From IMG/VR virus record IMGVR_UViG_3300009183_000101, positions 1 through 61,560 of that record: a DNA stretch of 61,560 nucleotides; one strand, written 5' to 3'. The notes beneath the pieces were generated by a model. It did not search any database. It was not told where the DNA came from and saw only the letters and a program-made list of their open reading frames with translations. Below are positions 6,871 to 59,611 of this stretch, piece by piece. The stretch is from a virus. Taxonomy: Duplodnaviria; Caudoviricetes. Numbering within the stretch: position 1 is the first letter of the stretch; each line of letters begins with the position of its first letter. The position numbers and the translations under genes are program-made.

Positions 6871-6901
6871 TTATTTTCAAAAATAATATTATATTTGTTG
6901 T

Positions 6902-9882: not shown

Positions 9883-10067
9883 TGGAAGCACAAGAATTAG
9901 TTGACGAACTTTTAAAAACAAAACTTGAATCAGAAGCCACAGAGCAATTAAAAAAAGAAATTGATTCATTAAATAATCAATTAAATATTTTCGGATATAC
10001 CTCTGAAGATTTAAGAAAAATAAAAATAAAAAAACAAGCCCTTAAAATATTGACAGATGGACAATGA
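9882..10067 (+). CDS. small coiled-coil protein
   Basis: TAATG coupling. Confidence 0.6.
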   Translation: MEAQELVDELLKTKLESEATEQLKKEIDSLNNQLNIFGYTSEDLRKIKIKKQALKILTDGQ

Positions 10068-10854
10068 ATTAATATTAGACCTAACTAATCAGTTAGATGT
10101 TTATGAAAAAAAGGTATTTAACGACCTACTGAAAAATCACAATATTTCGGGAGCGACATTTAAGCAGATAATACTTTCTGAAATAAAAAAATCCTACAAT
10201 ATGCAAATAGCATTTCAGACGAATCCAACTTCTTTGTTTGCTTCTATTGTTTTATGTGCTCAGTTAGGATTAATGCCGAGTAGTCAACTTGGGCAGTTTT
10301 ATTTTAGTGTAGAAAAATCAGATGCAAAAGGTTATTATGTAAATCCTATCATTGGATACCAAGGTTTAATAAGTATTTTATTAAGAAGTGGTGAAATAAT
10401 ATCGATAAGTGGTGAAAGTGTTCATGAAGGTGATATTTTTGAATATGAATTAGGATTGAATCCAATTTTAAAACATATTCCCGAAGACCCTATAAGGAAT
10501 GCATTTACTCTAACTCATGTATATTGTGTCGCAACCTTTAAAAATGGCACAAAATCGTTTAAAGTGATGACACGAAGAGAATTATTGGCAACCATCAATA
10601 TGCAAAAATCAAAAAGTGATTTTTACTTTAATGATGTTAAAGATTCAAATCATTGGATGCTGAAAAAAATTGTTTTGAAGCAACTTTCTAAATTTTTACC
10701 TAAAGACTATTCGGGAACTTTAGCAGTCAATACTGATAATGCTTTAGAAGGTGGTAATTTATTAGATTTAGATGAAGAGAATAATGTGATTGTAACTAAA
10801 TTAACAACGGATAAAAAAGAAAAATCAATGTTTGGTGATGTGGATTTAGATTAA
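10057..10854 (+). CDS. recT: RecT-family single-strand annealing protein
   Basis: AQLGL.P..LGQFY..IGYQGL..RSG..V.EGD.FEYELG..W..K.VLK. Confidence 0.9.
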   Translation: MDNELILDLTNQLDVYEKKVFNDLLKNHNISGATFKQIILSEIKKSYNMQIAFQTNPTSLFASIVLCAQLGLMPSSQLGQFYFSVEKSDAKGYYVNPIIGYQGLISILLRSGEIISISGESVHEGDIFEYELGLNPILKHIPEDPIRNAFTLTHVYCVATFKNGTKSFKVMTRRELLATINMQKSKSDFYFNDVKDSNHWMLKKIVLKQLSKFLPKDYSGTLAVNTDNALEGGNLLDLDEENNVIVTKLTTDKKEKSMFGDVDLD

Positions 10855-14215: not shown

Positions 14216-15070
14216 TTAGTTACTTGATTTATTTCTAAATATTAAATATAAAGCAGTTAATACTACTAAACCACCGACTCCAATGAAAATCCATTTTTTG
14301 TCTAAACTTGCACTTGCACCATTAACTAATTCATCAGCCGTTGCGTTTGTTTTTACTTTTGAGCCTGTTTGTGTGTTTAATTTAGGAGTCAATTCTTTAA
14401 TCTTATCACCAATGATTTTCTTTTGAGAATTAAGAACACCTTTATTATCTAATTTTTTCCATAATTCATAAGTATTTTTTTCAAATGCATATTCTATTTG
14501 TTCTTCAATTAATTTTGATTTATCATTTAAATAATCTAAATAATTTGTTATAGATAGAGTGGCAACCCAATCAATATGATGGTCAAGTATATTTTTTATT
14601 AAATTAGAATGTTTATGATTAATATTAGGGTATCCACCTTCACTATCTCTGATATTTCTTTCTGCTATATTTTGAGCATCTCTTCGAGATGTTAATAAAT
14701 CATCATATTTATCTATCAAAGAATTTGTAGCACTTCTTTCCAAATTTGAAGAATTCTGTCTATCTTTAGCGAATTGTTCTATTAATTTTTGAAGACCTGC
14801 AATATCTAATTTTTGAAAATTTGAATTTTTATTTGCAATTTCTTTCGATTTAGAAATAATAGAATTTTTTATAACATCATTTTGTCCAAAGTTTGTTGAA
14901 TATAAATCGGCATAAGATTTATAATAAGAATCTGATAAAGTTGGGCTACCATATTTTTTTTCTAAACTATCACCATCTGCGTTTAAAAACCCATTTTTAT
15001 TATTAAACATTCCTGTCTGACGTACATTTTTATGTATTGTCGCCCCTAATTCTTTATTTATATGTTTCAT
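14216..15070 (-). CDS. helical virion protein with C-terminal TM and FLNADG motif
   Basis: ORF track; terminal hydrophobic helix. Confidence 0.7.
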   Translation of the reverse strand: MKHINKELGATIHKNVRQTGMFNNKNGFLNADGDSLEKKYGSPTLSDSYYKSYADLYSTNFGQNDVIKNSIISKSKEIANKNSNFQKLDIAGLQKLIEQFAKDRQNSSNLERSATNSLIDKYDDLLTSRRDAQNIAERNIRDSEGGYPNINHKHSNLIKNILDHHIDWVATLSITNYLDYLNDKSKLIEEQIEYAFEKNTYELWKKLDNKGVLNSQKKIIGDKIKELTPKLNTQTGSKVKTNATADELVNGASASLDKKWIFIGVGGLVVLTALYLIFRNKSSN

Positions 15071-15615
15071 TTATTAAATCTCCTATATGCTAAAAATCCA
15101 ACTAAACCAACTAAGACAACTATTGAACTAACTAAAATTATAGTAGCAGTTTTAGAATTTCCTTTTGCAAGTAATAATTGATTTTGAAAACTTTGTTCTT
15201 CTTTTTTGTTTTTTTCAATAGAGCATTGTGCTTTTTCGTAATACTTTTCAAATTCGTCTAAAGCCAATTTTGAACCTTGAATATAATCATTTAATACTCT
15301 TTTTTTATCTGCGTCTCCTTTTAATTGCTCATCTTCGTCTTTTTTGATTTGGTTTTTACAAGCAACAATATATTTTTCAATGATTTCGCAATCATATTTA
15401 TATGAAGGCTTCCAACCTGCAAATCTACCCTTGTAAGCATCTTTTTGTCTGCTTCCCAAATTACCATCGGGCTTCCCATCAGCATAAGAATAATCTACAT
15501 CTTCAAATCCATATCGTTCTTTTTTTGCAAAAGCAAAAGCATCTTTATCTAATTTTGACATTCCGTCAAATCCAAAAGACATATCATCGTTTTGGTAAAA
15601 TACATCTATTTCCAT
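15067..15615 (-). CDS. virion protein with C-terminal TM and FGFDG/YSYADG motifs
   Basis: ORF track; terminal hydrophobic helix. Confidence 0.7.
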   Translation of the reverse strand: MEIDVFYQNDDMSFGFDGMSKLDKDAFAFAKKERYGFEDVDYSYADGKPDGNLGSRQKDAYKGRFAGWKPSYKYDCEIIEKYIVACKNQIKKDEDEQLKGDADKKRVLNDYIQGSKLALDEFEKYYEKAQCSIEKNKKEEQSFQNQLLLAKGNSKTATIILVSSIVVLVGLVGFLAYRRFNK

Positions 15616-15620
15616 TTTTT

Positions 15621-16016
15621 TTATATTAATTGATTACTTAAAAATTCAACTTGTTGTTTAGTTTTTATTGGTAGCATTCTATCACCAAAAACTCTTACTA
15701 TTGCTTTTATTGTATTATTACCTAACAATCCATCTGCTTTTATTAAAGATTCACTTGAATATTTTTCTACTAATACCTTATTTAGTTTATTTTGAAATAG
15801 CATAACTTTTGTTTTAAAAATTGCATCCTTTTTTGCTTCTGTAATAGGGTCAAATGTTGTAGAAGTATATTTTGAAAAATCTTCATTTGGGTCGTAAGGT
15901 GTTTTATCACCACCACCCGTAATTAAAACAATTGGACTTTCTCCCTTAAATATTTTGTAAAGCACATATATTCCAAGAACGATAATTGTTCCATATATTA
16001 TTTTTTTATTTGTCAT
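15621..16016 (-). CDS. membrane protein with peptidoglycan-binding-like motif
   Basis: N-terminal TM; FQ..LN...ADGLLGNNT..AI resembles PG_binding_1. Confidence 0.55.
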   Translation of the reverse strand: MTNKKIIYGTIIVLGIYVLYKIFKGESPIVLITGGGDKTPYDPNEDFSKYTSTTFDPITEAKKDAIFKTKVMLFQNKLNKVLVEKYSSESLIKADGLLGNNTIKAIVRVFGDRMLPIKTKQQVEFLSNQLI

Positions 16017-16537
16017 AATTTAATTACATCCTCTCTTACATATTTGTAAACATTTGGCATCCCAAATAAATCTTTGGTCAAAAAACTTTTTTGACTTTGA
16101 ACTTCTTTGTAAACTGCATCTGTTAATTTTATTTTAACCCATTTAAATTTAGTTTTAGTTTCGGGATTAATTGCTCCACCTATATCTAAATATCCTGCAA
16201 CAACTTCACCAATTAAAGTATTTGGTTTTGATACTACACCATAAATATTATTAATTAATCCATCGTTAACTTTTATACTATCTCTAAGTTTAATTTCAGC
16301 AATTTTAGAATAAACTTTTTTGCCAACAATATCTTTATTCCAAGTTTTAGACTTAAAAACGTTTGCTAAATTAGGGTCTAATTTAACTTGTTCTTTTGTT
16401 TTATCAGAACCTTGTTGAATATCAGAAGATTCAACTTCTACCGAATCATCTTGAATAGAATTATCTTTAGTAGCGTAATACAAAGCAATTAAAACCACTA
16501 CTCCAAGTCCACCATATATTAAATATTCTCTTTTCAT
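16013..16537 (-). CDS. membrane-anchored protein
   Basis: N-terminal TM; beta-rich C-terminus. Confidence 0.7.
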   Translation of the reverse strand: MKREYLIYGGLGVVVLIALYYATKDNSIQDDSVEVESSDIQQGSDKTKEQVKLDPNLANVFKSKTWNKDIVGKKVYSKIAEIKLRDSIKVNDGLINNIYGVVSKPNTLIGEVVAGYLDIGGAINPETKTKFKWVKIKLTDAVYKEVQSQKSFLTKDLFGMPNVYKYVREDVIKL

Positions 16538-16707
16538 TTTTTGGCTTTATCAATTGCTTCAACTAACTTTTTTATCTCTTCAGCGTCAAATTCTTCTTGA
16601 GTTTTGCCACCTAATTTAACATTTTCTTTATTTTTATTAATAATTACAATACCAATAATTACAACTACACTTACTATACCTATTTTTACCCAAGTTTCTT
16701 TTTTCAT
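16534..16707 (-). CDS. 57-aa membrane protein (not in ORF track)
   Basis: MKKETWVKIGIVSVVVIIGIVIINK...; ATGA overlaps on both sides. Confidence 0.75.
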   Translation of the reverse strand: MKKETWVKIGIVSVVVIIGIVIINKNKENVKLGGKTQEEFDAEEIKKLVEAIDKAKK

Positions 16708-17153
16708 GATTGTGTTGTTTTATAAAATTTGTATCCATAGTACCCAACAACTCCAACTACTCCAATAGTCAAAATTGTTTTAATCATGTTTCCACTAAAA
16801 AACCCACTAACTCCTTTTCCAAAATTTGTAATTAAATTAGAAGCAGAATCCACTAAATCTGTACCTGCACCAATAGGTTTTAGAATTAAAGCAAAAACTC
16901 CTGCACTTGCATAAGGGTCTAAAGATTCTTGAACCATATAACTTCTAAATGCCGAGTTAAATGTTCTACAATCAAATCCTCTTGCACCATCAGTTTGAAT
17001 AGAGAAAGAATAATTCCATAATGCATTGGCTTTTTCGCCACCAAAACGCTTTTTAAGTTGTTTATGCCATTGTATCCAATTATCACAAGTCCAAGAGGTA
17101 TCAGAACCCCAAGCGTCATAATCGGGAACTACATTCCAAGTTGTTACTACCAT
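16704..17153 (-). CDS. Trp-rich virion protein with C-terminal TM
   Basis: ORF track; hydrophobic C-terminus. Confidence 0.7.
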   Translation of the reverse strand: MVVTTWNVVPDYDAWGSDTSWTCDNWIQWHKQLKKRFGGEKANALWNYSFSIQTDGARGFDCRTFNSAFRSYMVQESLDPYASAGVFALILKPIGAGTDLVDSASNLITNFGKGVSGFFSGNMIKTILTIGVVGVVGYYGYKFYKTTQS

Positions 17154-17161
17154 CTTTTTTG

Positions 17162-17947
17162 TTATTTAATTACCATATTCATTTTATCGAAGTCATTGAT
17201 AAATTTATCAATCAAATCGGCTCTATCCTTATTTAATTTTGAAGGTCTTCCTTGGAAAGTTTCCAAAAATGCTTGATATGCTTCAATCCTTGGATAACCC
17301 AAAGATAAGTAAATCAATAAACCATTCAAATCTGCTTCCATTTCATCGTTTATTTGCTCGTTTAAATAATAGTGAGAAAATTCGTGAAATAAAATTGCTA
17401 ATCTCATCGGGATGGTCATTTTTTGAAATTCTTCTTTAGATACTTCTATGATTCCTGTTTTTCTACCTATTCTTGCAGGTGTATTTAACACTTTTCCATC
17501 TTCTCCTTTAATTTGTTGACTTAATCGTATAAAATAACGATTATCGTCACTTTTATATGTATTTGGAGTTAATTCCCCAAGATTAAATGAGAATTTTTGT
17601 GAAAAATCCACAAAACTCTTAATTAATGCATTACCCATATCGTTCTCATCCAACCTTCTTTCTAAAGGTGTTTTACGAACACTTACAATCTCAAATGATT
17701 TCTCTTGTTCTCTTGGAATATTTTTACCAAGAGAAGAATTATAAACTTCAACTATTGCAACTTCGGGAGATAATGGCATACGAACATACAAAGTTTCTTC
17801 ACCATCGATAGTTTTGTACCTATCGGTAAATGTTCTTGTTTTGTCCGTTGCATCATAAACGCACAACTGCAACTTTGTTGGTTTACTCGTTTTTAAAGTA
17901 ATTGCCAAAGTTAAAGGAGCGTAGTTTGTGGTTATTTTATACTTCAT
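17162..17947 (-). CDS. zincin metalloprotease, candidate virion maturation protease
   Basis: ILFHEFSHY (HExxH) with downstream EMEAD third-ligand motif. Confidence 0.7.
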   Translation of the reverse strand: MKYKITTNYAPLTLAITLKTSKPTKLQLCVYDATDKTRTFTDRYKTIDGEETLYVRMPLSPEVAIVEVYNSSLGKNIPREQEKSFEIVSVRKTPLERRLDENDMGNALIKSFVDFSQKFSFNLGELTPNTYKSDDNRYFIRLSQQIKGEDGKVLNTPARIGRKTGIIEVSKEEFQKMTIPMRLAILFHEFSHYYLNEQINDEMEADLNGLLIYLSLGYPRIEAYQAFLETFQGRPSKLNKDRADLIDKFINDFDKMNMVIK

Positions 17948-18158
17948 TCAATTGTTGCTTAACATTTTCGGGCATTTCATTTACTTTAATTTGCCCACTT
18001 TTTAATTTTGCAATCGCTTTATCAATTGCGTTAACACCTTCACCATCAGCATTTAATGACTCTTTTGGTAGTGGCAAATTACCTCTATTTGCATAAATAA
18101 TTATTACGCAAACAACTCCAATTCCAATCCATGCTAATTGTTGATTTGTTAATGTCAT
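17937..18158 (-). CDS. small membrane protein (LNADG motif)
   Basis: N-terminal TM. Confidence 0.7.
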   Translation of the reverse strand: MTLTNQQLAWIGIGVVCVIIIYANRGNLPLPKESLNADGEGVNAIDKAIAKLKSGQIKVNEMPENVKQQLNEV

Positions 18159-18412
18159 TTTTTTTGTGATTTATAAAATAAATATATTCCAATTCCTAAA
18201 CCTAAAATAAGCAAAGTATTTCTCATTGTACTGCCACCAATAACTTCATCCTTAATATTTGTTTCGGTTTTTTCTTCTCCGTCAAAATTTTGAAACTCTT
18301 TAAGTGCTTGAGCATTTGGAATAAATTTTCCTTTATTCTTTTCACGCTCTAACCAATCTTTAAAAGGCAAAGAAGAACCACTTTGTTTATATATTTTATT
18401 AGCACTAATCAT
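18155..18412 (-). CDS. small membrane protein (FQNFDG motif)
   Basis: C-terminal TM. Confidence 0.7.
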   Translation of the reverse strand: MISANKIYKQSGSSLPFKDWLEREKNKGKFIPNAQALKEFQNFDGEEKTETNIKDEVIGGSTMRNTLLILGLGIGIYLFYKSQKK

Positions 18413-18421
18413 TTTGTAAAT

Positions 18422-18988
18422 TTAATAAAAATAAGGGAAATTATGTCCTTTGTTTTTACCACCATCAAATTGAGGTGCTCCACCACTTCCACTTTCTGTA
18501 GTATTTACCTTTTGTTTAATTCTTGGAAAATAAACATCTACATCCCATTTTAATTTAAATGACTTATTACTTTCAAGATATGTCTCTGTTGAGTCTCCAA
18601 AAGTATTAGCGACACTTACAACATCCCCTTTTTTGAATAAAGGAACAATTTGACCTGTAATAATTTTCTTACTTATATCTTTCATTATTTTTGCATTTAC
18701 AAAAGGGGCTTTCTTTGGGTCATATCCAAATCCCTTCACAGGAGTGCTTTCACCTAATTTTGTATTTACAATTGTATCAGATTTAACATTTGCTATATCT
18801 TCAACTTTTTGGTTTTCATTGCCAAATTTTAAACCTTGTGCAGTAGTTTGTTCTGCCGTTTGATTAGTTGAAGTAACATTTGGCGTAGGCTCTTCTGAAG
18901 AAGTCCCTTTATTTTTAAAATACCTTAACGCTAAATAACCACCAATGGCTAATGCTCCTAATCCTATAAAAATTGTTTTGTTTTCCAT
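18422..18988 (-). CDS. membrane-anchored protein (C-terminal QFDG motif)
   Basis: N-terminal TM. Confidence 0.7.
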   Translation of the reverse strand: MENKTIFIGLGALAIGGYLALRYFKNKGTSSEEPTPNVTSTNQTAEQTTAQGLKFGNENQKVEDIANVKSDTIVNTKLGESTPVKGFGYDPKKAPFVNAKIMKDISKKIITGQIVPLFKKGDVVSVANTFGDSTETYLESNKSFKLKWDVDVYFPRIKQKVNTTESGSGGAPQFDGGKNKGHNFPYFY

Positions 18989-19584
18989 TATCTAAAATTT
19001 GCTCTACGTCCTAATGTTTCAATTGAACCATCAAAAGGAATTATACCTCCTGTAATTATTGGAGCACCCATGCGAGTTACTGTTGAGCCCGAAGTTGAAC
19101 TCGTTCCACCACCAACTACACCACCCGAAGAGCCTGTGCTTGTTCCTGTAGATGTACCTATTCCTAATTGGTCTCCAATAGTTCCTTTAGCCTCAGTTAC
19201 AACTGTTGTTGCTTGTGCCTTTTCCATATCTTTTATCTTTTGTTGGACAAATTCCAAAGCCAATTTTCTTTTTAATTCTGCTTCTGCTTTCGCTTTTGCT
19301 TCCGATTCTGCTCGTGCTTTTGCTTCTGCTTCTGCTTCTAATCGTAGTTTTGCTTCTGCTTCTGCCTTAATTTGAGCATCAGTTTTTATTAATAATCCTA
19401 AAGGTGAAATTGGTAATCCCAAATTAGGAATCATAGGAAATCCACCTCCACCTCCACCTCCACCACCCGAAGTAGGCTCTTCTCCTTCTTCAGTAGTAGT
19501 TGTTGTTGCTTTTGGCTTTGAAAAGACTTTATTTGCAATAATTAATCCACCGACTACTAATGCTACTTTAGTTATTGTTTCCAT
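18988..19584 (-). CDS. membrane-anchored low-complexity protein (poly-Gly, AEAK coil, PFDG motif)
   Basis: N-terminal TM, Gly run and AEA repeats. Confidence 0.7.
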   Translation of the reverse strand: METITKVALVVGGLIIANKVFSKPKATTTTTEEGEEPTSGGGGGGGGGFPMIPNLGLPISPLGLLIKTDAQIKAEAEAKLRLEAEAEAKARAESEAKAKAEAELKRKLALEFVQQKIKDMEKAQATTVVTEAKGTIGDQLGIGTSTGTSTGSSGGVVGGGTSSTSGSTVTRMGAPIITGGIIPFDGSIETLGRRANFR

Positions 19585-19585
19585 C

Positions 19586-19786
19586 TTACTTTAAATTAAA
19601 TCTTGCTTTACTTTTAAAAATATTAGTTTGTGACATATCTGCCATAGAATCGTCAATAGCGTCAAAAGACAAGGTGCTTTCTTCGGTTACTTTTGCAGTA
19701 TCTACAACCTTGTCTGTTTTAGGCTTTAAAATTAGGTAGGCTATTCCTAAAACTACTATTCCTGTAATTATGTGTTCTGTTTTCAT
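19586..19786 (-). CDS. small membrane protein (LSFDA motif)
   Basis: N-terminal TM. Confidence 0.7.
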   Translation of the reverse strand: MKTEHIITGIVVLGIAYLILKPKTDKVVDTAKVTEESTLSFDAIDDSMADMSQTNIFKSKARFNLK

Positions 19787-20007
19787 TTTTTCCCTATTAA
19801 AAAATAGTTAATTGCTCCACCACCTATAGCCCCTAAAAAGCCATAAACGTATAAATTTTTTTGTTTGTACCATGCGAACATTAAACCTGCAATAGCCCCA
19901 ACTGCACTACCTTTAATAGTTTGTTTTGCAGTTGACATAAAAGAATCATGATTACTCGTTTCTTTCATGATTTTTACTTGGTCTAATGCATCTTCAAATT
20001 CAGTCAT
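19783..20007 (-). CDS. small two-TM glycine-zipper protein
   Basis: GSAVGAIAG and GFLGAIGGG helices. Confidence 0.7.
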   Translation of the reverse strand: MTEFEDALDQVKIMKETSNHDSFMSTAKQTIKGSAVGAIAGLMFAWYKQKNLYVYGFLGAIGGGAINYFLIGKK

Positions 20008-20011
20008 AGGT

Positions 20012-20593
20012 TTATTTTTTTCTTACTAAATAAATAATACCACCTAAAAGTAAAAGTCCACCTACTGACAATAAAATAATACTACCTATACCCATTCCCG
20101 ATTTTTCGTTCTTTTTAGTGCCTTGCTCTTGATAATATTGCTCTCTTGCAGTATCCATAGCACCTTGTGCAGTTGGTGCATTTTGACCTGTTTGTTTAAC
20201 TGACCATACATTTAAACCTGTATTTAAAATTGACTTAAAAACATCGGGACTAAAATATTCGCCAAATTTACTTAAAGTAGAACTTTTTGAAGTTGAGTCT
20301 GTTTTAAGGTTTGCGTCAACACCCCCAAATGGGTCTTTCCCTCCAACTGCTTGAAAAAATGCTTCTTCACCCGTAAAAGATACTGATGCTTGGGCTGACA
20401 AATCAGAAAATTCTTTTCTGAAATTATTACTTGTTTTAGCCAATGTTAAAAAAGCCGAATCAATTGTTCTATCTTCAGCGTTTGTTGATAATTCTACACC
20501 ATACTTGTTAATCAATGCGATTACTTCAGGCTTCTTTTTGTCGATAGTTGCTACTGCAACTAAGTAAATTTCTTTATCTGTTAAATTTTTCAT
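20012..20593 (-). CDS. virion protein with C-terminal TM
   Basis: ORF track; terminal hydrophobic helix plus RKK. Confidence 0.7.
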   Translation of the reverse strand: MKNLTDKEIYLVAVATIDKKKPEVIALINKYGVELSTNAEDRTIDSAFLTLAKTSNNFRKEFSDLSAQASVSFTGEEAFFQAVGGKDPFGGVDANLKTDSTSKSSTLSKFGEYFSPDVFKSILNTGLNVWSVKQTGQNAPTAQGAMDTAREQYYQEQGTKKNEKSGMGIGSIILLSVGGLLLLGGIIYLVRKK

Positions 20594-20982
20594 TTTCTTG
20601 TGATTATTGCTGATGCGATGATTATTGTTGCTACAATTAAAAATGCATTTGTTTGCATTGCTAATTTTGTAGATTCACTTACTTGGTTGTTATTTACTGA
20701 ATTACTTGCGTCTGCTCCAACAAAATTATATTTTAGGTCTTGACCCATTGATTTGTTTTGACATCCACAATTACAACCTCCGTCTGCATTTGAATATACA
20801 TCCATGATTAATTCTTTGTCGGGGTGTAAATCTGCAATTCTTCTTAATGCAGGTTCACCTTCTTGAGCGACTAACTTGCGTAAAGCCGAACCAAGATTTC
20901 TTTTATCCCTAATTTTTAATCCATAAGATTTTAACACAGATATTGCTCCATTCGGATTGTTTATTGCTATATATTCATACAT
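20590..20982 (-). CDS. virion protein with C-terminal TM, YSNADG/FVGADA motifs and CxCxC
   Basis: ORF track. Confidence 0.7.
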   Translation of the reverse strand: MYEYIAINNPNGAISVLKSYGLKIRDKRNLGSALRKLVAQEGEPALRRIADLHPDKELIMDVYSNADGGCNCGCQNKSMGQDLKYNFVGADASNSVNNNQVSESTKLAMQTNAFLIVATIIIASAIITRK

Positions 20983-21006
20983 CTTTTTACTTGTTTACAA
21001 AGTGAT

Positions 21007-21044
21007 AAAAAAAAAGGGTAGGGCGATAACACCCCACCCTTTTT
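21007..21044 (-). terminator. intrinsic terminator after the capsid candidate
   Basis: AAAAGGGTGGGG..CCCTACCCTTTTTTTTT. Confidence 0.75.
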
Positions 21045-21063
21045 ATAAAGCAAATTGTTAGGA

Positions 21064-21762
21064 TTAACCTACCAATTTAACAGGTTGTGAACGTACAATG
21101 CCTGGACTTGCGAAGTCACGAGCAACTGCTTTACCACTTAAACCACGAGACAAATTGATGTTATCACTTGGGTATAAGTATAATTTAACAGTTGTCGAAG
21201 CCAACACAGAAGAAAGGATGATTTTAGTGTAACCATCAATTCTATAACCATAACGCATAGCCAACACATTTGATTGTTGCTGATATGGGTCAAGAGTTGG
21301 AATTAACGCTTTTTGTGCAATGTTACCATTTGCATCTTTAGTGTTGATTGACAACGTCTCTAACAACTGATTTGCAGTTGCAGATTGGATGTATGTCAAA
21401 CCTACGCTAAAAGGTGAAGCAGAGAACTGCCATAACATTTGTTGGTAAGTTACATTTGGAATAGCAGAACTAATAGTTACTGCACCAATTACTAAATTAC
21501 CACTTGCGTTAAAGCCATTATTGTTAATGTATTCATAAGAACCTAATACGTCAAAATTACTAACGGCAGAACCCGTGTTAGTTACAGTTACGATGTAAGG
21601 TTGTGAAGTTGGAGCACTTGGAGCACCCATTGATGATGCATCAGCACCATAAAAATCTTCAGAGGCAGTAAATGACAAATCATCGTCAAAAAATCCGTCT
21701 GCGTTTGCGAAGCCTTCGTTTGCATTTCTTTGTGCATCGGCTAAATATTTTCTAATACTCAT
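21064..21762 (-). CDS. putative major capsid protein (jelly-roll-like) with acidic N-terminal propeptide
   Basis: Beta-strand-rich, no TM, many C-ending codons, own terminator, next to the packaging ATPase, has a paralog. Confidence 0.6.
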   Translation of the reverse strand: MSIRKYLADAQRNANEGFANADGFFDDDLSFTASEDFYGADASSMGAPSAPTSQPYIVTVTNTGSAVSNFDVLGSYEYINNNGFNASGNLVIGAVTISSAIPNVTYQQMLWQFSASPFSVGLTYIQSATANQLLETLSINTKDANGNIAQKALIPTLDPYQQQSNVLAMRYGYRIDGYTKIILSSVLASTTVKLYLYPSDNINLSRGLSGKAVARDFASPGIVRSQPVKLVG

Positions 21763-21794
21763 AATTTTGTTTTTTTAAATTTTTGTTTGTTTGT

Positions 21795-21902
21795 TTAAAT
21801 TGTAGTCTTGTTTTTGTCAATTGCTTTTTGCACTTGGTTGGCAACAAGGACACCAACTACGATAACTGATACCGATAATAAAATTTCTTTAATTTTTTCC
21901 AT
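21795..21902 (-). CDS. 35-aa membrane protein co-transcribed with the capsid candidate (not in ORF track)
   Basis: MEKIKEILLSVSVIVVGVLVANQVQKAIDKNKTTI; A-rich leader. Confidence 0.7.
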   Translation of the reverse strand: MEKIKEILLSVSVIVVGVLVANQVQKAIDKNKTTI

Positions 21903-22069
21903 TTTTATGTTTTTATATTTTTATTGTTAAACACCTTCCGAAGTCTTAACTATTCAAAATTATTTTTTATTATTGACAATAAGTTTGAATAGCATTTCTT
22001 AAATTCCAACGAATGTTTAACTATATTATAATTAAAGACGTAACTTTCAATATGTCAACAAATTGCAAG

Positions 22070-22885
22070 TTATGAATTAGTGTAAATATTTTTAATTCTA
22101 TTATACTCAAATTTTAACGCACTATCAGTTGTGTATTTACTTTTACCATTTTCACCTTTTATTTGTAATAAAGGTGTTATTATTTTACGATAGTTTTCTT
22201 CTATATATTGACGAATAGCAAAATCAAGTTTTTTATCATCTACTTTACCGACTATTTTCATCTCATCCATGTCTACATATTGAAAGAATCTTTTATTGCC
22301 ACTATTATACTCATTATCCGTTAGCATCTCTACTATACGAAGTAACTCATATTTATCTTCAAACTTTTTTGCGTGACGACCAACTGAATCTAAGTTTTTA
22401 TGAAAACGAATCCAATTCATATTTTGCCAAATTTTTGGGCTAATACGTCCAATAGATTGAAAGTGCATAATGATGTCCATATCCGTATGCCTATTTGTAC
22501 AAATTGCACCGATAACGTCATTTGGCAATGAGTCTGATATATATTTATTAATATCTTCAATTAACAATAGTCCACCTCGATATGTTTCGAGAATAATATA
22601 AAGAGTTTTGGCAATATCGTCCAAAGTCATTTTCTTACCATTCTCATGAAAAGGTCTAATTCTTCGTGCTTCAACAATAGGATGTACAGAAAATCTTACT
22701 AAATCTTTCATTTGAATTGATTTAATGTGAGAAAATTCATCGTTTACATCTAATATTAAAGCCCTCCTTGGCAAAATACCACTTGCAAGATTACCCGTTA
22801 CATAATTTAAAATCATTTTGTTGGTAGTAAAGGACTTTCCCACACCTTTTTTACCAACGGCTACCCCTAACATTGCTTCTCTCAT
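22070..22885 (-). CDS. FtsK/HerA-superfamily (A32/P9-like) genome packaging ATPase
   Basis: Walker A GKKGVGKS, Walker B LLLIED, Arg-finger NRH followed by hhhhhQ. Confidence 0.8.
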   Translation of the reverse strand: MREAMLGVAVGKKGVGKSFTTNKMILNYVTGNLASGILPRRALILDVNDEFSHIKSIQMKDLVRFSVHPIVEARRIRPFHENGKKMTLDDIAKTLYIILETYRGGLLLIEDINKYISDSLPNDVIGAICTNRHTDMDIIMHFQSIGRISPKIWQNMNWIRFHKNLDSVGRHAKKFEDKYELLRIVEMLTDNEYNSGNKRFFQYVDMDEMKIVGKVDDKKLDFAIRQYIEENYRKIITPLLQIKGENGKSKYTTDSALKFEYNRIKNIYTNS

Positions 22886-23886
22886 TTTCTCTTTTTTCTT
22901 GTAGTTGTTCTTGGTTTATTATCGTTTGCTATATCTTCCATTTGTTGTAAAATAGATTCATTACCAAATTCGGGCATAGCAGTTGGTCTTTTTGTACGTT
23001 TTGGTGCTTCTTTAACTACCTCTACTTCTACTTCTACAAATTCATTTTTAGGAACTTCTTTTTTTACTTCATCGGGTTCAACGTATTCCCTTTGAGAGGT
23101 TTGTTGTGGTTCTTGTCTTGGTGCTTCTTCTCTTGGTTGTTCTTTTTGAGGTGGTGGTGGAGTATAACTTGTACTCATATCTCTAAGTTGAGATAATAAC
23201 TGAGCATTTTGACCTCTTAATTGATAAACCATTGCACCTTTTTGAATTATATCTAAACCAAAATAATAAGCCAATAATTGCTCATCGGTCATTCCAATAT
23301 TTCTCTTTTGGAAAACACGAATCATGACAGGTCTTACCTTATCTTTGAATTCATCACTTACACTAATAACCCCTTCAGTTTGTTTGTTGTACTCTTCAAT
23401 ATAATCTAATACTCCAATAGTTTGACCTTGTATTGGAATTCTTAAACCACTATCAATTTCGCCATCAGTCATCATTTTCTGCACCTTATTCGGATTAAAC
23501 TGAATAAGTTTAGTAGCGAAGCCATTTAATTGAGTGTATCCATCTAAAACTGCTTCTACGAGTGCTTCAGACGCTTTCTTTTGGTCTTTCTTATCTAAAT
23601 TTTCCGTATATGGGTTTGCACTTCCCGATTCTTCATCAGTACCCCAAACTTTCCTACCATCGCCACTTGGTTGTTCGTCATTTTGTTGACCACCTAAATT
23701 TTGTTGAAAAGTATTATTCAAATCGTCAAAAGTTGGTGGAATAACTACGGCTTCATCAATTGGAGAAGCATCTACCATTCCCGAAACATTCGGTCTCGTA
23801 TAATCTCTTTGAACTACATTTTCTTGTAGTGGTGAAAAATCGTTTTCAAATTCTGCATTTGCGTTAAATCCTGCGTTGTTGTCCAT
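22882..23886 (-). CDS. acidic/disordered protein upstream of the ATPase (possible packaging or scaffold factor)
   Basis: 334-aa ORF with ATGA coupling to the ATPase. Confidence 0.65.
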   Translation of the reverse strand: MDNNAGFNANAEFENDFSPLQENVVQRDYTRPNVSGMVDASPIDEAVVIPPTFDDLNNTFQQNLGGQQNDEQPSGDGRKVWGTDEESGSANPYTENLDKKDQKKASEALVEAVLDGYTQLNGFATKLIQFNPNKVQKMMTDGEIDSGLRIPIQGQTIGVLDYIEEYNKQTEGVISVSDEFKDKVRPVMIRVFQKRNIGMTDEQLLAYYFGLDIIQKGAMVYQLRGQNAQLLSQLRDMSTSYTPPPPQKEQPREEAPRQEPQQTSQREYVEPDEVKKEVPKNEFVEVEVEVVKEAPKRTKRPTAMPEFGNESILQQMEDIANDNKPRTTTRKKRK

Positions 23887-23887
23887 A

Positions 23888-24340
23888 TTAATTTTTATTT
23901 AATTTTATTTTTAAGTTGTTTTCTGATTCGTTAATTTTTTCAATAATTTTTTGCTCAAAAGCATTTGTACTCGCTTTAGGAAATTTCCTAATAAAACAAG
24001 TTGACTTATAAATTGTAGCCCTACTTTTACCACTTATTTTAGCAAGGTCTTTAGGGCTATAAAGCAAATGTTTATCACATAGATAAGCCCATATCCCAAA
24101 AGCATATTTTCTTGGATATTTTTTACTTGGTGAAAAAAGTGTTTCGGGTGGCATATTAAATACTCCACATACACATTCTATAGCCCAAAGTATATCTTTT
24201 CGCTCAAAGTTGTTAGATTTATCTTTGCCATTTTCGAGAACAAGAATAGTATTTAATATCCCTATTTCTTTAATTGTAGATACCATTGTCTCCAAAAGAT
24301 TTGATACCATTTGATTATTATCATTGTTGGTCGTTTGCAT
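23888..24340 (-). CDS. DnaA C-terminal-like HTH DNA-binding protein
   Basis: VC.VF......L.S.......R....YL.......S..DLA...G.SRATI. Confidence 0.6.
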   Translation of the reverse strand: MQTTNNDNNQMVSNLLETMVSTIKEIGILNTILVLENGKDKSNNFERKDILWAIECVCGVFNMPPETLFSPSKKYPRKYAFGIWAYLCDKHLLYSPKDLAKISGKSRATIYKSTCFIRKFPKASTNAFEQKIIEKINESENNLKIKLNKN

Positions 24341-24707
24341 CTCTAAAAATAATTTTGCCTTCGTAATCCCAAAATTTCTTTGCCACAATAGTGTGTACAT
24401 TTTGGTCGCCATCGGGTAATAACGTATCCATAATAAATTTTAAAATATTATCTAAGTCGGGTTTGTTTTGATGTGGTTTACCACACATAGATGTTTTTTT
24501 CTTATTGCTCCAACTTTCGGGCATAGGAATGTAAAAATCTGCATCTAAAATTTCCGTTAATTTAAACTTAGTAATCATGGCGTAATCTTCCATGGCTTTC
24601 TTATGCAGTCTATACTTTAATACTGCTTCTCTTGGAGGTCTTAACCACTTGTCCCTTTGGGTCATTCGTGGTTTACCTATCGGTGTTACTAAAAATTCAT
24701 ATTCCAT
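24321..24707 (-). CDS. rusA: RusA-family Holliday junction resolvase
   Basis: P.GKPR..F..PMP.SWS..KPDLDNILK..D. Confidence 0.85.
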   Translation of the reverse strand: MEYEFLVTPIGKPRMTQRDKWLRPPREAVLKYRLHKKAMEDYAMITKFKLTEILDADFYIPMPESWSNKKKTSMCGKPHQNKPDLDNILKFIMDTLLPDGDQNVHTIVAKKFWDYEGKIIFRDANDQQ

Positions 24708-25347
24708 ATTTTTTCGTGAAGTTTTTGTCAGTTAATATTTTGTCTGCAATAATTAAGGAAAAATCATTATCACTTGAATAATGCAATCCTAAAAACAATC
24801 TACTAACTGATATGTCGTGTGCCAATTTTTGTAAATAATCATTATGTTCAACATATTTGTTTCCCAATACACTACAAACGAGTTTTGCTTGTAAGGTATG
24901 TCCACTTGGGTATGAAGGATTTAATGCCGACATACTTGCTGAAGGGAATAACCGAGCCTTTAAATATTGTGCCAACTGATAAGGTCTTGGTCGTTGATAG
25001 TGAAATTTTAATTTTGCAATTAAACTTTTTGACGAATTTGTTATATCATCAATAAGGTCATCTTCATTTTTACCAATTTTTTCAACGCAATAACGCTTTA
25101 AAATTGATGTTAAATCATCATCGTATGCAATATATCTATTAACGATTTTTTCGTTTTTTTGATTTTCGCTATTTTGATAATGCAATAGTTCTCTTATTTC
25201 ATCTTTTGTAGTTTCAGATGAATTAGAAGGGAAAGGAAATTCTTTTAATTCCTCATATAATGATTCAAACTCGCCCCCTTTTTTTAAGTATGGCAAGTAA
25301 ATATCATTTGGGTTTCCGTATGTAACATCGTCAAACCAACTCTTCAT
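24697..25347 (-). CDS. PAP2/haloperoxidase-superfamily phosphatase
   Basis: K.HYQRPRP, PSYPSGH, SR...GLHY.SD. Confidence 0.85.
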   Translation of the reverse strand: MKSWFDDVTYGNPNDIYLPYLKKGGEFESLYEELKEFPFPSNSSETTKDEIRELLHYQNSENQKNEKIVNRYIAYDDDLTSILKRYCVEKIGKNEDDLIDDITNSSKSLIAKLKFHYQRPRPYQLAQYLKARLFPSASMSALNPSYPSGHTLQAKLVCSVLGNKYVEHNDYLQKLAHDISVSRLFLGLHYSSDNDFSLIIADKILTDKNFTKKYGI

Positions 25348-25693
25348 ACTTGTCGCCCATTTGTTTTCTTAAATTCGTTTCGAGTTCGTTCAATTTTTTA
25401 CTCATATCAGAATCATCTTTGTCCAATTTTTGAATCTGTTTACGATTTGAAACGATACTCATGACTAAAGAAACAATAGTTAATCCAATTAAAAAAATGG
25501 TTAACCATTGTGTTTTATCCATAGCCGTGTTTTCTTCTAACGTATCAATGGTGTTATCTCTTGTAGTGCCACCCTCTGCCAACCCTTCTTGTGGAATAGG
25601 TGCAGGGTTTTGGGCTTCTACATTTGGGACATTCACGTTTGGTGAGCCACCTGCATGGTTAGTTGCTACTTGTTGTACTGCTTGTGTATTCAT
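25331..25693 (-). CDS. membrane protein with LAEGG motif and coiled coil
   Basis: central TM. Confidence 0.7.
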   Translation of the reverse strand: MNTQAVQQVATNHAGGSPNVNVPNVEAQNPAPIPQEGLAEGGTTRDNTIDTLEENTAMDKTQWLTIFLIGLTIVSLVMSIVSNRKQIQKLDKDDSDMSKKLNELETNLRKQMGDKYEELV

Positions 25694-26175
25694 TAACTTG
25701 TAAATTTAATTTTATTACCAACTCTATAAGCATTCCTTACTCGATTGGTATTTGGTTTTGCGTCAAAGTTTACTTTTGTGTCTTTTGCAAAAGCATCATC
25801 TTTAACTTTTTGAATGTCTACTTTATAGTTTCTATAAATCATTCCAATAACTGCACCTGCACCGATAGCGATTAAGCCAATTTTAGCCTTTTGTTTAAAG
25901 TCACCTTCTGTGTAATGCATAGCCCCTAAAACTAAAGTCCACCAAATTGGGTTATATAAGTAGTAAGCCGATGCCGACCTTACCCAATATTGCTTTGGCG
26001 TAATTGTTTTATTGACCCATTGGTCACGAAGTTTCTTTTCAGTATAAAAATATAAAGCGTCAGCAGGAGTAGGAATAATGTCAGATAGAATCAATCCAAT
26101 AGCCCCTGCGTAAATAATAGCAGTACCATAAGACCCTTCAGTCGCCTTTGATATTTCCTTTAAAACCCCTTGCAT
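25693..26175 (-). CDS. multi-TM membrane protein (VNFDA motif)
   Basis: three hydrophobic segments. Confidence 0.7.
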   Translation of the reverse strand: MQGVLKEISKATEGSYGTAIIYAGAIGLILSDIIPTPADALYFYTEKKLRDQWVNKTITPKQYWVRSASAYYLYNPIWWTLVLGAMHYTEGDFKQKAKIGLIAIGAGAVIGMIYRNYKVDIQKVKDDAFAKDTKVNFDAKPNTNRVRNAYRVGNKIKFTS

Positions 26176-27534: not shown

Positions 27535-30500
27535 TTATTTTTTGTTGTATTTTTTTAGTTGTGCACCAATAATTTTTTGAGCCGATTCATGTGCTTCTTC
27601 TTTATTATAAGTTTTACCATACGAATTTCGGTATTTTTTCGGAACTTCTCTTTCTAACAAAGATAATTGAACAGATTCAACTTTTTCATTAAAAGTCATA
27701 CCCCCTTTTTTGTATTCATTTTTAGCAATAATATATTTCCCCGTTTCCCCATCAATACCAAATTGTTGGTCATCGTGAGAAAGGATAGGCATTACTAATA
27801 CAAAATCATTTTTTAAAGGGTTATAAGTTGCTTCAACACTTGTAAAATATATTGCATTATTCTTTTTTTCTGAATCATAATGCATTTTGCATTTTGTCAA
27901 ACCTAATAATTTTAATGTAGTCATTGTTTTTACAATAAATTCACTATTAAAGAAAATAGTCCTATGTTTTGTTTTTACGGCAACAAATGCAATTTCATTA
28001 AAATAGTTTGTATATTGATTTACTGAAAACTCTGCTAATTTTAAAAAATCATTTATATTTATTTCGCAACTATCTAATCGGTCAAATGAATTAATTATAA
28101 TGTAAGTCCATTGAGGATATTTACTTTGAGTCGCATTTTCGCTTGTCTTATCTCCTCCAATTTTTTTGCAAACATTCGAAACACAAATTTCTTTTGCTTC
28201 AACTTCGGTTTCATTGTAAATATGAATAAGAATATTTGCATCTGTTGCAACTACTGAATTGTTTTCAAACCTAACCGAAGTTAAAGCAGGTCTTAAATAA
28301 TATGAAGAATCAGAATCACTCATAGCAAATTTATTTATTTGCTTTAACCAATTTTCATCATTTTCAATATTGTATTTTTTTGCAATTGATTTTAATTTTA
28401 AAGAAGGAACATCAATATATTTTGCAGGAAATAAATTTATTGCATTTGGATTTCCATATTCTGCTAAATTTTTTGATATGATTGCTTTATTAGATTTGCT
28501 TAAAGTATTTATCGCTTCTGCGTAAACATCAATCGCTTCTGATTTTTTATTTTCCTTTATTGATTTTTCAACTGCATCTTGAAACGCAAAAGTGTTTGCT
28601 AACTCAAAAATATTTGCAATTTCTTTTGACTTTGATGTTTTGTCCGATTTAACTTTTGCAATTGCATTTTTCATTTTTGCAACTCCATCATTTTCTTCAG
28701 AACTATAACTTTCAACACTTTTTAATGATTCTTTTTTTACATAAAATCCATTGAATTTATCATCAGTTGTTTCGCCATTCTTTAAAATAACTTTGTCAAT
28801 ATTCCTTTTAGGAATATATACATAATTATCGCTCAATTTACCACCTTTGGCTAATTTGTATTCTCCACTTATAATAGATTCTCCTTTTATCAAATGTTTA
28901 ATACCATCATCGGTAGTTATTTTTAAAATAGAAATATCTCTTGGGGAAACATATTTCAGCATTAATGGTGTTTTGCCACCTCTTGCAAATTCATCTATAT
29001 CAAAAAATTCTTCAAAATCTTCCTCTTTAAACAAATGATTTGTACCATCTTTGAAATATACAGTAACTTCCGTGTATTTATACAAATTACCATTTTTAGT
29101 TGCTTTTGCAACACATTGCCCCTTTTTTACGGGTTTCTCAAATTTCCTTTCGGCATATTCTTCAGCCATTTGGCATAGGTAATTAGAATCCCCAAGTTTG
29201 CCACCTTCAGCGTATTCGCTTCTACCATCTAAATAATGCGTTACATCGCTAATATCGGTTTCGGCTCTACCTACTTTCCCAATAACCCAAGGTTCAACGT
29301 TGTTCGGGTCTTTTTTTAATGCTCTTTTTAGTTCTTCAGTATGGTGTGCAATGGCTTTGTTTTGACTTAATACCATTTTAGTGCTTTCATCTAATTTACC
29401 ACCTTCTGCCATTTTACCTTGATTATATTCTAATGGTAAAATAGTTAAATCTATTTTACTCATTCTATATGAAGTTGTTTTATTTAACATATAATCAGTA
29501 TCATATAAAACTCCATCATCATAAATATACATCTTCTCATAGTCTTGAGAAGTTAAAACTCTTTTACGAGGTGTTGATAAAGATTTGCTTTCCAAAAGAA
29601 TCATTTTCCTTTTTTCAGTTTCTCCACCTTCAGCCATTTTCCCATAATATGGAACTTTTGAAAAATCAACTATAATCGATGGTATTTCTTTTGATTGATA
29701 TTCTTTACCATTTTTATCTTCGTAAACAAATTCGCCAAAATTATTTTTGCCATCGTCAAAAATAACTAATCCTGTCGCTACATCTCCAACTTTATTTTTT
29801 GCACCTTTAAATCTTTTTGAATAAATATAATCCAAATCTATTTCATCGGCTAAAGATTCTATTTGCTTATAAGTTATTCCACCTTCTGCCATCATATTTG
29901 CTCCCGAATTATCAGAGAATACTACGCTATTACCAACTTTAGAACTTGCTTTTTTAGACAAATCACTTTTAATTCTTTGAACATCGGTTTCGCTTAATTT
30001 AAAGTGAACTTTTTTGTCACTTTGATAATGATAAGAATAAGCACCATTTGCGTGACTTTGACTCATTAATCCTTCTCCCGTACTTAAATCCAAAAACCCA
30101 AATCTTGTATCCGATTGTATCATAATAGGCTTATTGGATTGGTCAGCAGATATTGGATAAACAATAAAGTCTTGAGGCTTTCTCATTCCCTTTATTTTCA
30201 TTTGCAATGTTGTAGTACCCATAATGTTGTTTTTAACATTAATGAGTTCGGTATTTATTGTGCCTAATTCTCCTCCTTCAGCATAGTACTCGCTTTTGCC
30301 TTTTTGACCTATTTTACGCAAATCATAAGGTTCTGCATCTAAACCAAATTCAAACGTATATCCAATCTTTTTCATTTCGGCTAATAAATCATTTAAACTA
30401 TCATAATTATAATCTTCCACTTCCAAGGTAGATAATAATTCACTAACTTCTTCGGGTTGGTCTTCATAGTCCTCAAATAAATCTACTCCTTCATCATCGT

Positions 30501-30843: not shown

Positions 30844-30844
30844 A

Positions 30845-59594: not shown

Positions 59595-59611
59595 CTAAAT
59601 TTAAAGAACAA

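Follow-up and report, generated by a model that had tools for sequence, protein, structure and literature searches.

The genome analysed here, the IMG/VR virus record IMGVR_UViG_3300009183_000101, is a sequence of 61,560 bp (61.5 kb) with a G+C content of about 30%, and it was studied over its whole length, to which we refer as the window. In the block of genes that presumably encodes the structural proteins of this phage, a short peptide motif is repeated in a capsid protein candidate and in a series of small membrane proteins, and a predicted zinc metallopeptidase of the zincin class is encoded in the middle of them. The reading that we favour is that the motif represents the recognition and cleavage site of this M48-like zinc protease of the phage itself (17162-17947), to which we assign a probability of about 0.45. 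A maturation system of this kind had been put forward in the original prediction, made from the letters of the window. What stood from it is that the motif is real, specific to the structural block and conserved in position, and that the zincin is credible; the link between the motif and the protease is circumstantial, and a docking role, the alternative named in the same prediction, has to be weighed against it.

Every gene called from 10966 to 57877 lies on the minus strand. In the order of transcription, a P-loop ATPase (22070-22885) is followed by a 232-aa protein (21064-21762), the capsid candidate, and by fifteen further, mostly small proteins down to 14216. In the 16 proteins of 14216-21762, called the module from here on (2477 aa), the core [AF]-D-[GA] was matched 15 times, in 11 proteins, against 2.25 matches expected, and none of 2000 within-protein shuffles reached that number. 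Shuffling within blocks of 10 or 20 residues, which controls for the local composition, raised the expectation to 2.6-2.8, and again none of 2000 shuffles reached 15. With a gene set that includes the ORF 30845-33889, the core was found 15 times in the module against 2.38 expected (reached by 0 of 500 shuffles) and 15 times in the rest of the genome against 9.66 expected (reached by 28 of 500). The full pattern [FYL]-x-[NGS]-[AF]-D-[GA] occurs six times in the module, where 0.07 were expected, and not once elsewhere, where 0.3 were expected. Five other orders of the core residue classes occurred one to four times each. Furthermore, an unbiased k-mer scan returned ADG and FDG as the top tripeptides and NADG as the top tetrapeptide (four proteins against 0.05 expected). 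The enrichment is confined to the structural block.

The original prediction had listed motif strings gene by gene. All of them are present in minus-strand ORFs at the coordinates given there; these coordinates designate the right genes, but they mark the low ends of the genes and not the motifs, whose positions are shown in Table 1. One string absent from that list is KADG in 15621-16016 (minus strand), a 131-aa membrane-anchored protein that ends in A-D-G-L-L-G-N-N-T-I-K-A. We take this terminal stretch to resemble the signature of a peptidoglycan-binding domain, and for this reason KADG is probably unrelated to the motif.

The codons used at the motif sites differ synonymously. In addition, BLAST among the 22 minus-strand proteins of 14216-26175 gave no similarity apart from one marginal match between membrane segments, which bears out the claim that the carrier proteins are otherwise unrelated. 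Two simple origins were discarded on these grounds, namely a DNA-level repeat or recombination linker (the codons vary) and a common ancestry of the carriers (they have no detectable similarity). Since the codons vary and the carriers are dissimilar, it is a short peptide that is under selection, and not a DNA repeat or a shared domain.

The motif is also enriched in relatives (related loci are given L numbers where they need to be told apart). For 31 loci from viral contigs, the capsid gene together with the 7.6 kb downstream of it contains 71 matches to the full pattern where 2.0 were expected, and the non-structural half upstream contains 0 where 1.7 were expected; it should be noted that these loci are mutually related and do not constitute 31 independent tests. 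In alignments of orthologues the sites hold their position while the flanking sequence and its length vary. This applies to site 1 of the capsid protein, to site 2 of the 130-aa protein, and to the sites of the 85-, 182-, 198-, 66- and 160-aa proteins. An iterated weight matrix gave the consensus [ED]-x-[FY]-x-[NG]-[AF]-[DN]-[GA], with 209 matches against 12 expected in the modules and 15 against 16 upstream, the module figure being partly circular because the matrix was trained on those same modules. The consensus first proposed was therefore real but too narrow, and this wider form, in which V, M or L and S, T or E are also tolerated, has to replace it. If the [AF] residue is numbered 0, the 142 unique instances have A (82%), F (14%) or V (3%) at this position, with M and L in variants, so that it is always hydrophobic; at position -1, N accounts for 41% of these instances, G for 24% and S for 11%. 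The spread over about eleven proteins holds in the window (11 of 16), but it is a lineage trait, as relatives have 3-10 proteins with a site out of 12-19 module proteins.

In principle, the pattern could be an effect of chance or composition, picked after the fact from low-complexity sequence: it was defined by eye, and the weight matrix scores proteins on which it was trained. This explanation is contradicted by the global and the local shuffles, by the k-mer ranking, by the comparison of the relatives with their upstream control and by the conservation in position, and we consider its probability to be practically nil. A second possibility is that convergent selection has produced a local turn, a hinge or a Ca2+-binding acidic loop, suited to linkers near the membrane. 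The sites are indeed embedded in acidic stretches, the leaders of distant capsid proteins are runs of D-D-Y-D-G, and D-G and N-G are known to favour turns. However, the aromatic residue at -3, the acidic one at -5 and the hydrophobic one at 0 are conserved together over about eight residues, which exceeds what a turn requires; permuted residue orders are not enriched; and the motif is absent from the non-structural half, though acidic linkers occur there as well. We regard a purely local structural element as improbable.

The location of the motif in flexible regions, another claim of the original prediction, was confirmed: the two sites of the capsid leader fall in residues of pLDDT below 50, and the other sites in gap-rich alignment stretches of variable length. 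The AlphaFold2 model of the capsid protein has a pLDDT of 87, with values below 50 at residues 18-26 and 29-40. Its jelly roll gave weak structural matches to PR772 P31 (Z 5.9), to phiCjT23 (Z 5.8) and to the FLiP capsid protein (Z 5.5). The protein falls into no family of Pfam or PHROGs, Foldseek against the PDB returned no match at E <= 0.001 for this model or for that of the zincin, and a Foldseek search in a viral library gave low-TM jelly-roll and C1q-like matches only. The protein could also be a penton instead of the major capsid protein. The residues ADG of site 1 are kept in all 30 aligned sequences (that of the window and 29 orthologues). Among 64 representatives of the family, which span 28-58% identity, site 1 shows F, Y or W in 56, N, S or G in 58 (N 29, S 18, G 11 at position -1), D in 43 and G in 54; for site 2 the figures are A in 61, D, N or E in 48, and G or A in 60.

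Some relatives have a second, capsid-like copy of the jelly-roll gene (L032 944-1606, L034 2686-3246 and L036 2073-2741), whose product has a basic leader devoid of the motif and another C-terminus; it adjoins a homologue of the glycosyltransferase gene 43105-44394. At the matching place in the window, 42613-43104, there is no second capsid-like gene. We considered a capsid lineage devoid of the motif and rejected it, as the motif-free proteins are extra paralogues in these three related genomes.

The remaining carriers are small membrane proteins. A crude hydropathy scan found membrane segments in at least 9 of the 16 module proteins, and additional ones were recognized by eye. From the gene order and these segments we infer that the module proteins are virion proteins. 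According to the positive-inside rule, the sites lie on the predicted cytoplasmic side of the membrane segments, and they are 12-16 residues away from the N-terminal anchors. The degree of conservation differs among the carriers. Site 2 of the 130-aa protein is kept as [FY]-x-[NG]-[AVF]-x-G in 29 sequences including the window, for example as FLGADG, YLNATG or FINFNG, and the sites of the 182-aa protein as F-G-[FM]-[DT]-G and [FY]-[SA]-[YN]-A-x-G in 12 sequences including the window. The site of the 160-aa protein is kept as V-[NE]-F-x-G in most of an alignment of 15 sequences including the window; that of the 198-aa protein as K-P-F-D-G and K-P-F-S-G in L004 and L012; and that of the 188-aa protein in L001, a close relative and the sole one that aligns there. 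Three orthologues of the 66-aa protein have F-S-G-E-D-D at the site position, the site of the 73-aa protein is partly kept (L-D-A-D-[KNG] or L-[NS]-A-K-[ED]), and the single orthologue found for the 284-aa protein carries FLNLEG. The string EFDA of the 57-aa protein, included in the motif by the original prediction, is present but weak, and it is lost in L002, one of two orthologues.

In the 193-aa protein, the orthologues have SFDG, SFIG, DYSG or SMSG at the place of the variant site. The orthologue of L011 (11177-12160) is 327 aa long owing to a tandem 17-residue unit that contains L-M-F-D-G-S, with at least four L-M-F-D-G units in the array; at the same place the L023 clade has three Y-F-[KR]-M-S-G units. 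Finally, in each of the 26 loci compared, the zincin gene has a member of the 85-aa protein family on its upstream side. The gap is 0-3 nt in 11 loci and about 200 nt in the other 15, where a single small gene of the 73-aa protein family intervenes. That the zincin always comes after this same motif-bearing anchored protein counts in favour of cleavage.

The zincin inside the motif cluster, which the original prediction had also recognized, proved to be well conserved, with an M48-like predicted fold and invariant catalytic residues. In 50 zincin sequences, H188, E189, H192, E202, E204, A205 and D206 are invariant, and so is T156-P157-A158-R159, on the strand before the active-site helix. The AlphaFold2 model (pLDDT 89, pTM 0.88) has a short disordered linker between the beta-sandwich and a sheet-plus-helices domain; HExxH lies on the predicted helix 179-194, and E-x-E-A-D opens the helix 202-215. 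In gluzincins of this type, an E-x-x-A-D signature supplies the Glu that acts as third zinc ligand; in the model this ligand would be a Glu on the next helix, E202 or E204. When compared with 48,161 PDB representatives, the catalytic domain matched BepA first (Z 8.0, rmsd 3.8, 118 residues), with 3c37, another M48-type peptidase (Z 6.6), and abylysin, a minigluzincin (Z 5.9), also among the matches. Many sandwiches of the carbohydrate-binding and GOLD types resemble the N-terminal beta-sandwich (Z 6-7.8); its relationship to the capsid jelly roll was rejected, as hhalign gave it a probability of 0.5%. The sub-threshold Pfam matches of the 50 members are all to clan-MA peptidases, namely PhageMetallopep (9/50), M56 (6/50), M48 (6/50) and SprT-like (5/50). 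M48 and M56 enzymes act at membranes. Because no match lies above the curated threshold, we call the zincin M48-like and not a member of Pfam M48. A PDB profile search with the zincin gave nothing relevant, and no other peptidase family was present among the 37 window proteins scanned against Pfam.

The zincin has 1089 homologues of the same length, a family as large as that of the capsid protein (1110). Among the viral contigs, all 26 loci that continue for at least 4.1 kb on the downstream side of the capsid gene have the zincin gene, and none of the 5 that end within 2.1 kb does; among the metagenome loci, the counts are 13 of 13 where more than 2.4 kb follow and 0 of 9 where less than 2 kb do. 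The zincin is therefore a core gene of the group. Feature-based look-alikes of its catalytic half are viral proteins of 120-143 aa, with M48 in 25% of the members of one cluster. No longer or fused forms of the zincin were found, which is weak evidence.

Table 1. Position of the motif carriers, of the zincin and of the other genes considered in this work (minus strand throughout; residue numbers refer to the proteins).
Feature	Position	Strand	Description
Zincin, 261 aa	17162..17947	-	beta-sandwich 1-96, linker, M48/minigluzincin-like domain ~107-255; HEFSH 17372-17386, EMEAD 17330-17344
Jelly-roll capsid protein, major capsid protein candidate, 232 aa	21064..21762	-	helix 3-16, disordered acidic leader 18-50, single jelly roll 51-232
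Capsid leader site 1, FANADG, residues 18-23	21694..21711	-	region of pLDDT <50
Capsid leader site 2, FYGADA, residues 37-42	21637..21654	-	~10 residues before the first jelly-roll strand
130-aa protein, C-terminal membrane anchor	20590..20982	-	YSNADG 20779-20796 and FVGADA 20707-20724, between conserved N-terminal domain and anchor
193-aa protein, C-terminal membrane anchor	20012..20593	-	variant SFTG 20366-20383, in linker
66-aa protein, N-terminal membrane segment	19586..19786	-	LSFDA 19658-19675
198-aa protein, N-terminal membrane segment	18988..19584	-	PFDG 19027-19044, 12 residues from C-terminus
188-aa protein, N-terminal membrane segment	18422..18988	-	QFDG 18461-18478, 12 residues from C-terminus
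85-aa protein, C-terminal membrane anchor, conserved N-terminal domain	18155..18412	-	FQNFDG 18278-18295
73-aa protein, N-terminal membrane segment	17937..18158	-	LNADG 18042-18059; gene overlaps zincin start by 11 nt
57-aa protein, N-terminal membrane segment	16534..16707	-	weak site EFDA 16582-16599
182-aa protein, C-terminal membrane anchor	15067..15615	-	SFGFDG 15562-15579, YSYADG 15475-15492
284-aa protein, C-terminal membrane anchor	14216..15070	-	FLNADG 14972-14989
160-aa multi-pass membrane protein upstream of ATPase	25693..26175	-	VNFDA 25759-25776, in C-terminal tail
P-loop ATPase, candidate FtsK/HerA-type packaging ATPase	22070..22885	-	P-loop GKKGVGKS in translation; adjoins capsid gene
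~1000-aa protein, DUF2958	27535-30894	-	carrier of second motif
1014-aa protein, no Pfam family	30845-33889	-	carrier of second motif
~1000-aa protein, ART-PolyVal	39709-42612	-	carrier of second motif
Small membrane protein	25331-25693	-	one site of second motif

If the zincin acts on the motif, what we infer for the virion location, the membrane tether, the cleavage and the scissile bond is the following. The acidic leader of the capsid protein and the cytoplasm-facing linkers of the small membrane proteins would lie between shell and membrane during assembly; in a vesicle pinched off the cell membrane, the cytoplasmic side would face the shell, that is, the same space as the inward-pointing capsid leader. 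The zincin, a soluble protein, would be held there by the anchored 85-aa protein, would trim the capsid leader at its two sites and would clip the membrane proteins, and this cleavage would remove parts that serve in assembly only and make the particle infectious. Zincins generally prefer a hydrophobic residue at P1', and on this basis we place the cut before position 0: the likely scissile bond would be [NG]↓[AF] (the arrow marks the cut), with the hydrophobic residue entering the S1' pocket. The footprint of about eight residues alternates at -5, -3 and -1, and this, together with the hydrophobic position 0 followed by Asp or Asn and then Gly, fits an extended peptide in the cleft of a zincin. 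As a speculation, the invariant Arg159, on the strand that lines the cleft, may be the partner of the motif Asp. In a complex prediction of the zincin with Zn and residues 1-60 of the capsid protein, one ipSAE value (0.34) lay above the mark of 0.32 and two (0.22 and 0.24) lay below it; run without controls, this prediction counts neither for nor against cleavage.

If the proteins are cut, the agent could also be a host protease or the carriers themselves, for instance by Asn-driven self-cleavage at N↓A or N↓F. The commonest pairs at positions -1 and 0 are N-A and N-F, which are the self-cleavage bonds of nodaviruses and tetraviruses. Asn, however, is not required, since it accounts for the 41% of instances mentioned above and for 29 of 64 representatives at capsid site 1, and as it is not conserved, Asn cyclisation is excluded as a general mechanism. 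A host protease, in turn, would give the phage no reason to keep a zincin of its own. We hold both variants to be very improbable.

The explanation that competes most directly with cleavage is docking, where nothing is cut. All copies of the peptide would bind one and the same pocket, located beneath the jelly-roll capsomer, on a scaffold or on an assembly factor; the N-terminal arm of the capsid protein would tie the capsomers together, the membrane proteins would copy the motif and so fasten the membrane to the shell, and the zincin would work elsewhere. The enrichment, the conservation and the disorder of the sites serve docking just as well as cleavage. Moreover, the N-terminal arms of jelly-roll proteins commonly mediate subunit contacts, all sites are on the side of the membrane segments predicted (by the positive-inside rule) to face the shell, the tandem arrays of L011 and L023 would add avidity, and sites near C-termini are typical of binding tails. 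On the other hand, docking gives no role to a zincin that is strictly conserved and encoded amid the module genes, and no reason for its fixed pairing with a motif-bearing protein. A hydrophobic residue, then a small or acidic one, then Gly, resembles the succession of protease subsites, although it is still compatible with a pocket, and no partner pocket was identified. Docking is in our opinion a serious possibility, albeit an unlikely one. If it applies, the peptide would be the first sequence rule for tying inner-membrane proteins to a capsid shell.

Several observations count against maturation cleavage by the zincin. What connects the motif with the protease is their co-location in the genome, so this link appears circumstantial. 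Among the loci examined there was no genome with the motif and without the zincin, or the reverse, and the distant capsid representatives had no loci in viral contigs. In L059, whose capsid gene abuts the contig end, no HExxH ORF was found in 7 kb, and the small proteins carry Y-M-S-A-N-G, so that this locus counts neither way. With regard to the enzyme, the Z of 8.0 for BepA is in the middling range of the scorer, Foldseek found no PDB counterpart at the limit given above, and the zincin stays below every Pfam gathering score (best E 0.0051-0.013). Small M48-like proteins are also common in tailed phages, so that a role other than maturation is possible. With regard to the sites, tandem arrays such as those of L011 and L023 suit multivalent binding better than cutting, and cleavage at the two sites located 12 residues from a C-terminus would remove very little. 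In L024, L018 and L005, neither ADG nor NADG is among the top k-mers, and only 3-5 proteins have a site; the zincin is equally conserved in these three loci. Since the spread over many proteins is lineage-specific while the zincin is equally conserved, most of the "substrates" would be dispensable. Family-wide conservation is limited to the capsid leader and a few other proteins.

A maturation protease is a hallmark of the tailed phages, where it is a serine protease, and of the eukaryotic viruses with jelly-roll capsids, where it is a cysteine protease. The nearest parallel to the cleavage proposed here is offered by adenovirus, where adenain cuts (M/I/L)-x-G-G↓x and (M/I/L)-x-G-x↓G in pIIIa, pVI, pVII, pVIII, pX and pTP. 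In both cases there is one viral protease, a short consensus ending in Gly is shared by a number of unrelated proteins that lie, in our case presumably, under a jelly-roll shell, a membrane-active protein is among the carriers, and some sites lie near the termini, where small peptides would be released. Adenain, however, is a cysteine protease with proven cleavage, whereas here the enzyme is a zincin and cleavage a proposal; our consensus is longer, with an aromatic residue at -3 and Asp before the Gly, and the capsid protein itself carries sites. In phage T4, the prohead protease gp21 acts on [LI]-x-E↓ sites in many head proteins. Again a bacterial virus has a short site shared by the capsid leader and several internal proteins, which in T4 are trimmed at maturation. 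T4, in contrast, is a tailed phage of the HK97 fold with an assemblin-type serine protease, and no such protease, portal or HK97 fold was detected here in the proteins scanned. The resemblance to the adenovirus and T4 programmes would be one of mode of action only, and the present system would belong to neither family. In vaccinia virus, the cysteine protease I7 cuts A-G↓x, and G1 is an HxxEH metalloprotease of the M16 type with unclear substrates. This virus is similar in having a metalloprotease among the morphogenesis genes of a membrane-containing virus and sites formed by a small residue and Gly in core proteins; it differs in the inverted motif HxxEH of G1 and in that cleavage at A-G↓x is the work of I7, a cysteine protease.

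With regard to the enzyme, M48 peptidases and minigluzincins (BepA/YfgC, Ste24, HtpX, abylysin) resemble the zincin in having HExxH on a helix and, on the helix that follows, a conserved Glu. The zincin differs from them in having no membrane segment, in its N-terminal beta-sandwich and in being encoded in a viral structural module. Iyer et al. (2017, PMC5512222) predicted that phage zincins embedded in polyvalent proteins process these large multi-domain proteins, either before or following packaging. The genome studied here likewise has two proteins of the polyvalent type (DUF2958 and ART-PolyVal) and a similar third one of 1014 aa; unlike those embedded zincins, ours is a stand-alone protein with no match to that Pfam family. 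PRD1, PM2 and similar phages share with this genome a jelly-roll capsid gene (here a candidate) beside a P-loop ATPase, small membrane proteins and a cell-wall hydrolase. PRD1, PM2 and their kin have genomes of 10-15 kb and a double jelly roll; here the genome has 61.5 kb, with contigs of relatives up to 101 kb, and a single jelly roll is predicted. To our knowledge, PRD1, PM2 and their kin have no maturation protease, and we know of no tailless membrane-containing bacterial virus that uses one. A zinc-protease version with a readable consensus would, if true, be a third independent solution to maturation, and, for an uncultivated group of considerable size (about 1100 capsid clusters at 90% identity, 593 at 50%), the sequence would allow the mature virion proteins to be predicted.

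The view of these viruses as a group derives from their gene content. With a jelly-roll protein, a neighbouring ATPase and small membrane proteins, and with no tailed-phage family among the proteins scanned, the element looks like a tailless phage with an inner membrane, from a group not yet described. No terminase, portal, HK97-fold or tail family was found among 37 window proteins compared with Pfam and 20 compared with PHROGs, which cover about half of the ORFs. The candidate packaging ATPase has sub-threshold Pfam matches only (Zot with E 0.0057, AAA_22, DUF87) and a match to phrog_2666 (E 1.7e-4), and it was found in 30 of 31 related loci. The module is followed by an LEA_2-like membrane protein (a sub-threshold match) and a membrane-anchored glucosaminidase. 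The capsid protein, the zincin and the ATPase had no relative among 50,697 GenBank phage records, and the name of every cluster member looked up was "hypothetical protein". The capsid family comprises 1110 clusters at 90% identity and 593 at 50%. A literature search at the level of titles and abstract openings gave no tailless or membrane-phage group of this kind and no protease in membrane-containing phages.

Besides the motif of the module, a second one, [YMF]-A-[EKRD]-G-G, is found in three proteins of about 1000 aa (Table 1), often as Y-E-D-G-G-Y-M-A-E-G-G. Counting one site in the small membrane protein 25331-25693, there are 20 occurrences outside the module, where 0.75 were expected, and one inside it, where 0.33 were expected. 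The sites are 45-130 residues apart, between segments that resemble different small domains, and their codons vary. The large proteins of relatives have MAKGG, MADGG and MAEGG (68 occurrences against 15.3 expected over all locus proteins). From the sequences, these sites are candidate linkers or processing sites. The core A-[DE]-G is common to both motifs, which is suggestive, though the preceding residues differ. No embedded peptidase was detected with Pfam in the three large proteins, which makes the stand-alone zincin a candidate for processing them as well. A literature search for the strings of the second motif gave nothing relevant, and the words "linker" and "glycine" do not appear in the text of Iyer et al. 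2017 (PMC5512222).

When both motifs are put together, one arrives at a broader proposal, namely that an abundant, hitherto undescribed family of tailless phages of 60-100 kb with a single jelly roll matures in the manner of adenovirus by means of a membrane-tethered zincin, which would remove the capsid leader and clip the membrane proteins at F-x-N-A-D-G and would also release the small domains of the three large proteins at their Y-M-A-E-G-G linkers. If true, the virion would contain a packaged arsenal of host-takeover proteins. We consider this combination rather unlikely. As a separate matter, the ORF 30845-33889 (minus strand) runs 50 nt past the TTG annotated as the start of the next ORF, 27535-30894, whose translation probably begins instead at the ATG of its codon 18.

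With respect to the host, the relatives L063-L066 sit in metagenome bins labelled Bathyarchaeia, Planktophila and Sediminibacterium, the last one being a 132-kb contig; as these labels differ, not all of them can be hosts. Intergenic boxes of about 50 nt, which contain T-A-n-n-T-T-T-G, are located just upstream of gene starts at 2-53, 722-773, 3961-4012, 54240-54291 and 57014-57065, and in reverse orientation at 6856-6899, 57905-57948 and 59416-59459. The string T-A-n-n-T-T-T-G is presumably the -7 promoter element of Bacteroidota. They hint that the host belongs to the Bacteroidota and that both genome ends have an early-gene regulon. A strict Bacteroidota promoter pattern gave 11 matches against 3.1 expected, few of them adjoining gene starts.

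Other genes of the window deserve a mention. The ORF 35876-38359 (minus strand) encodes an 827-aa AAA_5 ATPase of the MoxR/dynein type, split by a LAGLIDADG homing-endonuclease region at about residues 371-449. We rejected it as a terminase, since the PHROG matches of that name cover the intein-like insert, which also explains the labels primase and helicase loader. Upstream of the packaging ATPase candidate, 22882-23886 (minus strand) encodes a 334-aa protein conserved in 30 of 31 loci, with an invariant N-terminal F-S-P-L ... Q-R-x-Y-T box, a long region rich in Pro, Gln and Glu and a Lys/Arg tail. A role as terminal protein or in association with DNA is possible. A block of genes probably for sugar and methyl transfer extends over about 43-54 kb, its scanned member being 43105-44394 (glycosyltransferase family 4). 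Further identifiable genes encode a PAP2 phosphatase (24697-25347), a RusA resolvase (24321-24707), RecT (10057-10854), a PD-(D/E)XK nuclease (9055-9882) and one tRNA-Met (59524-59595).

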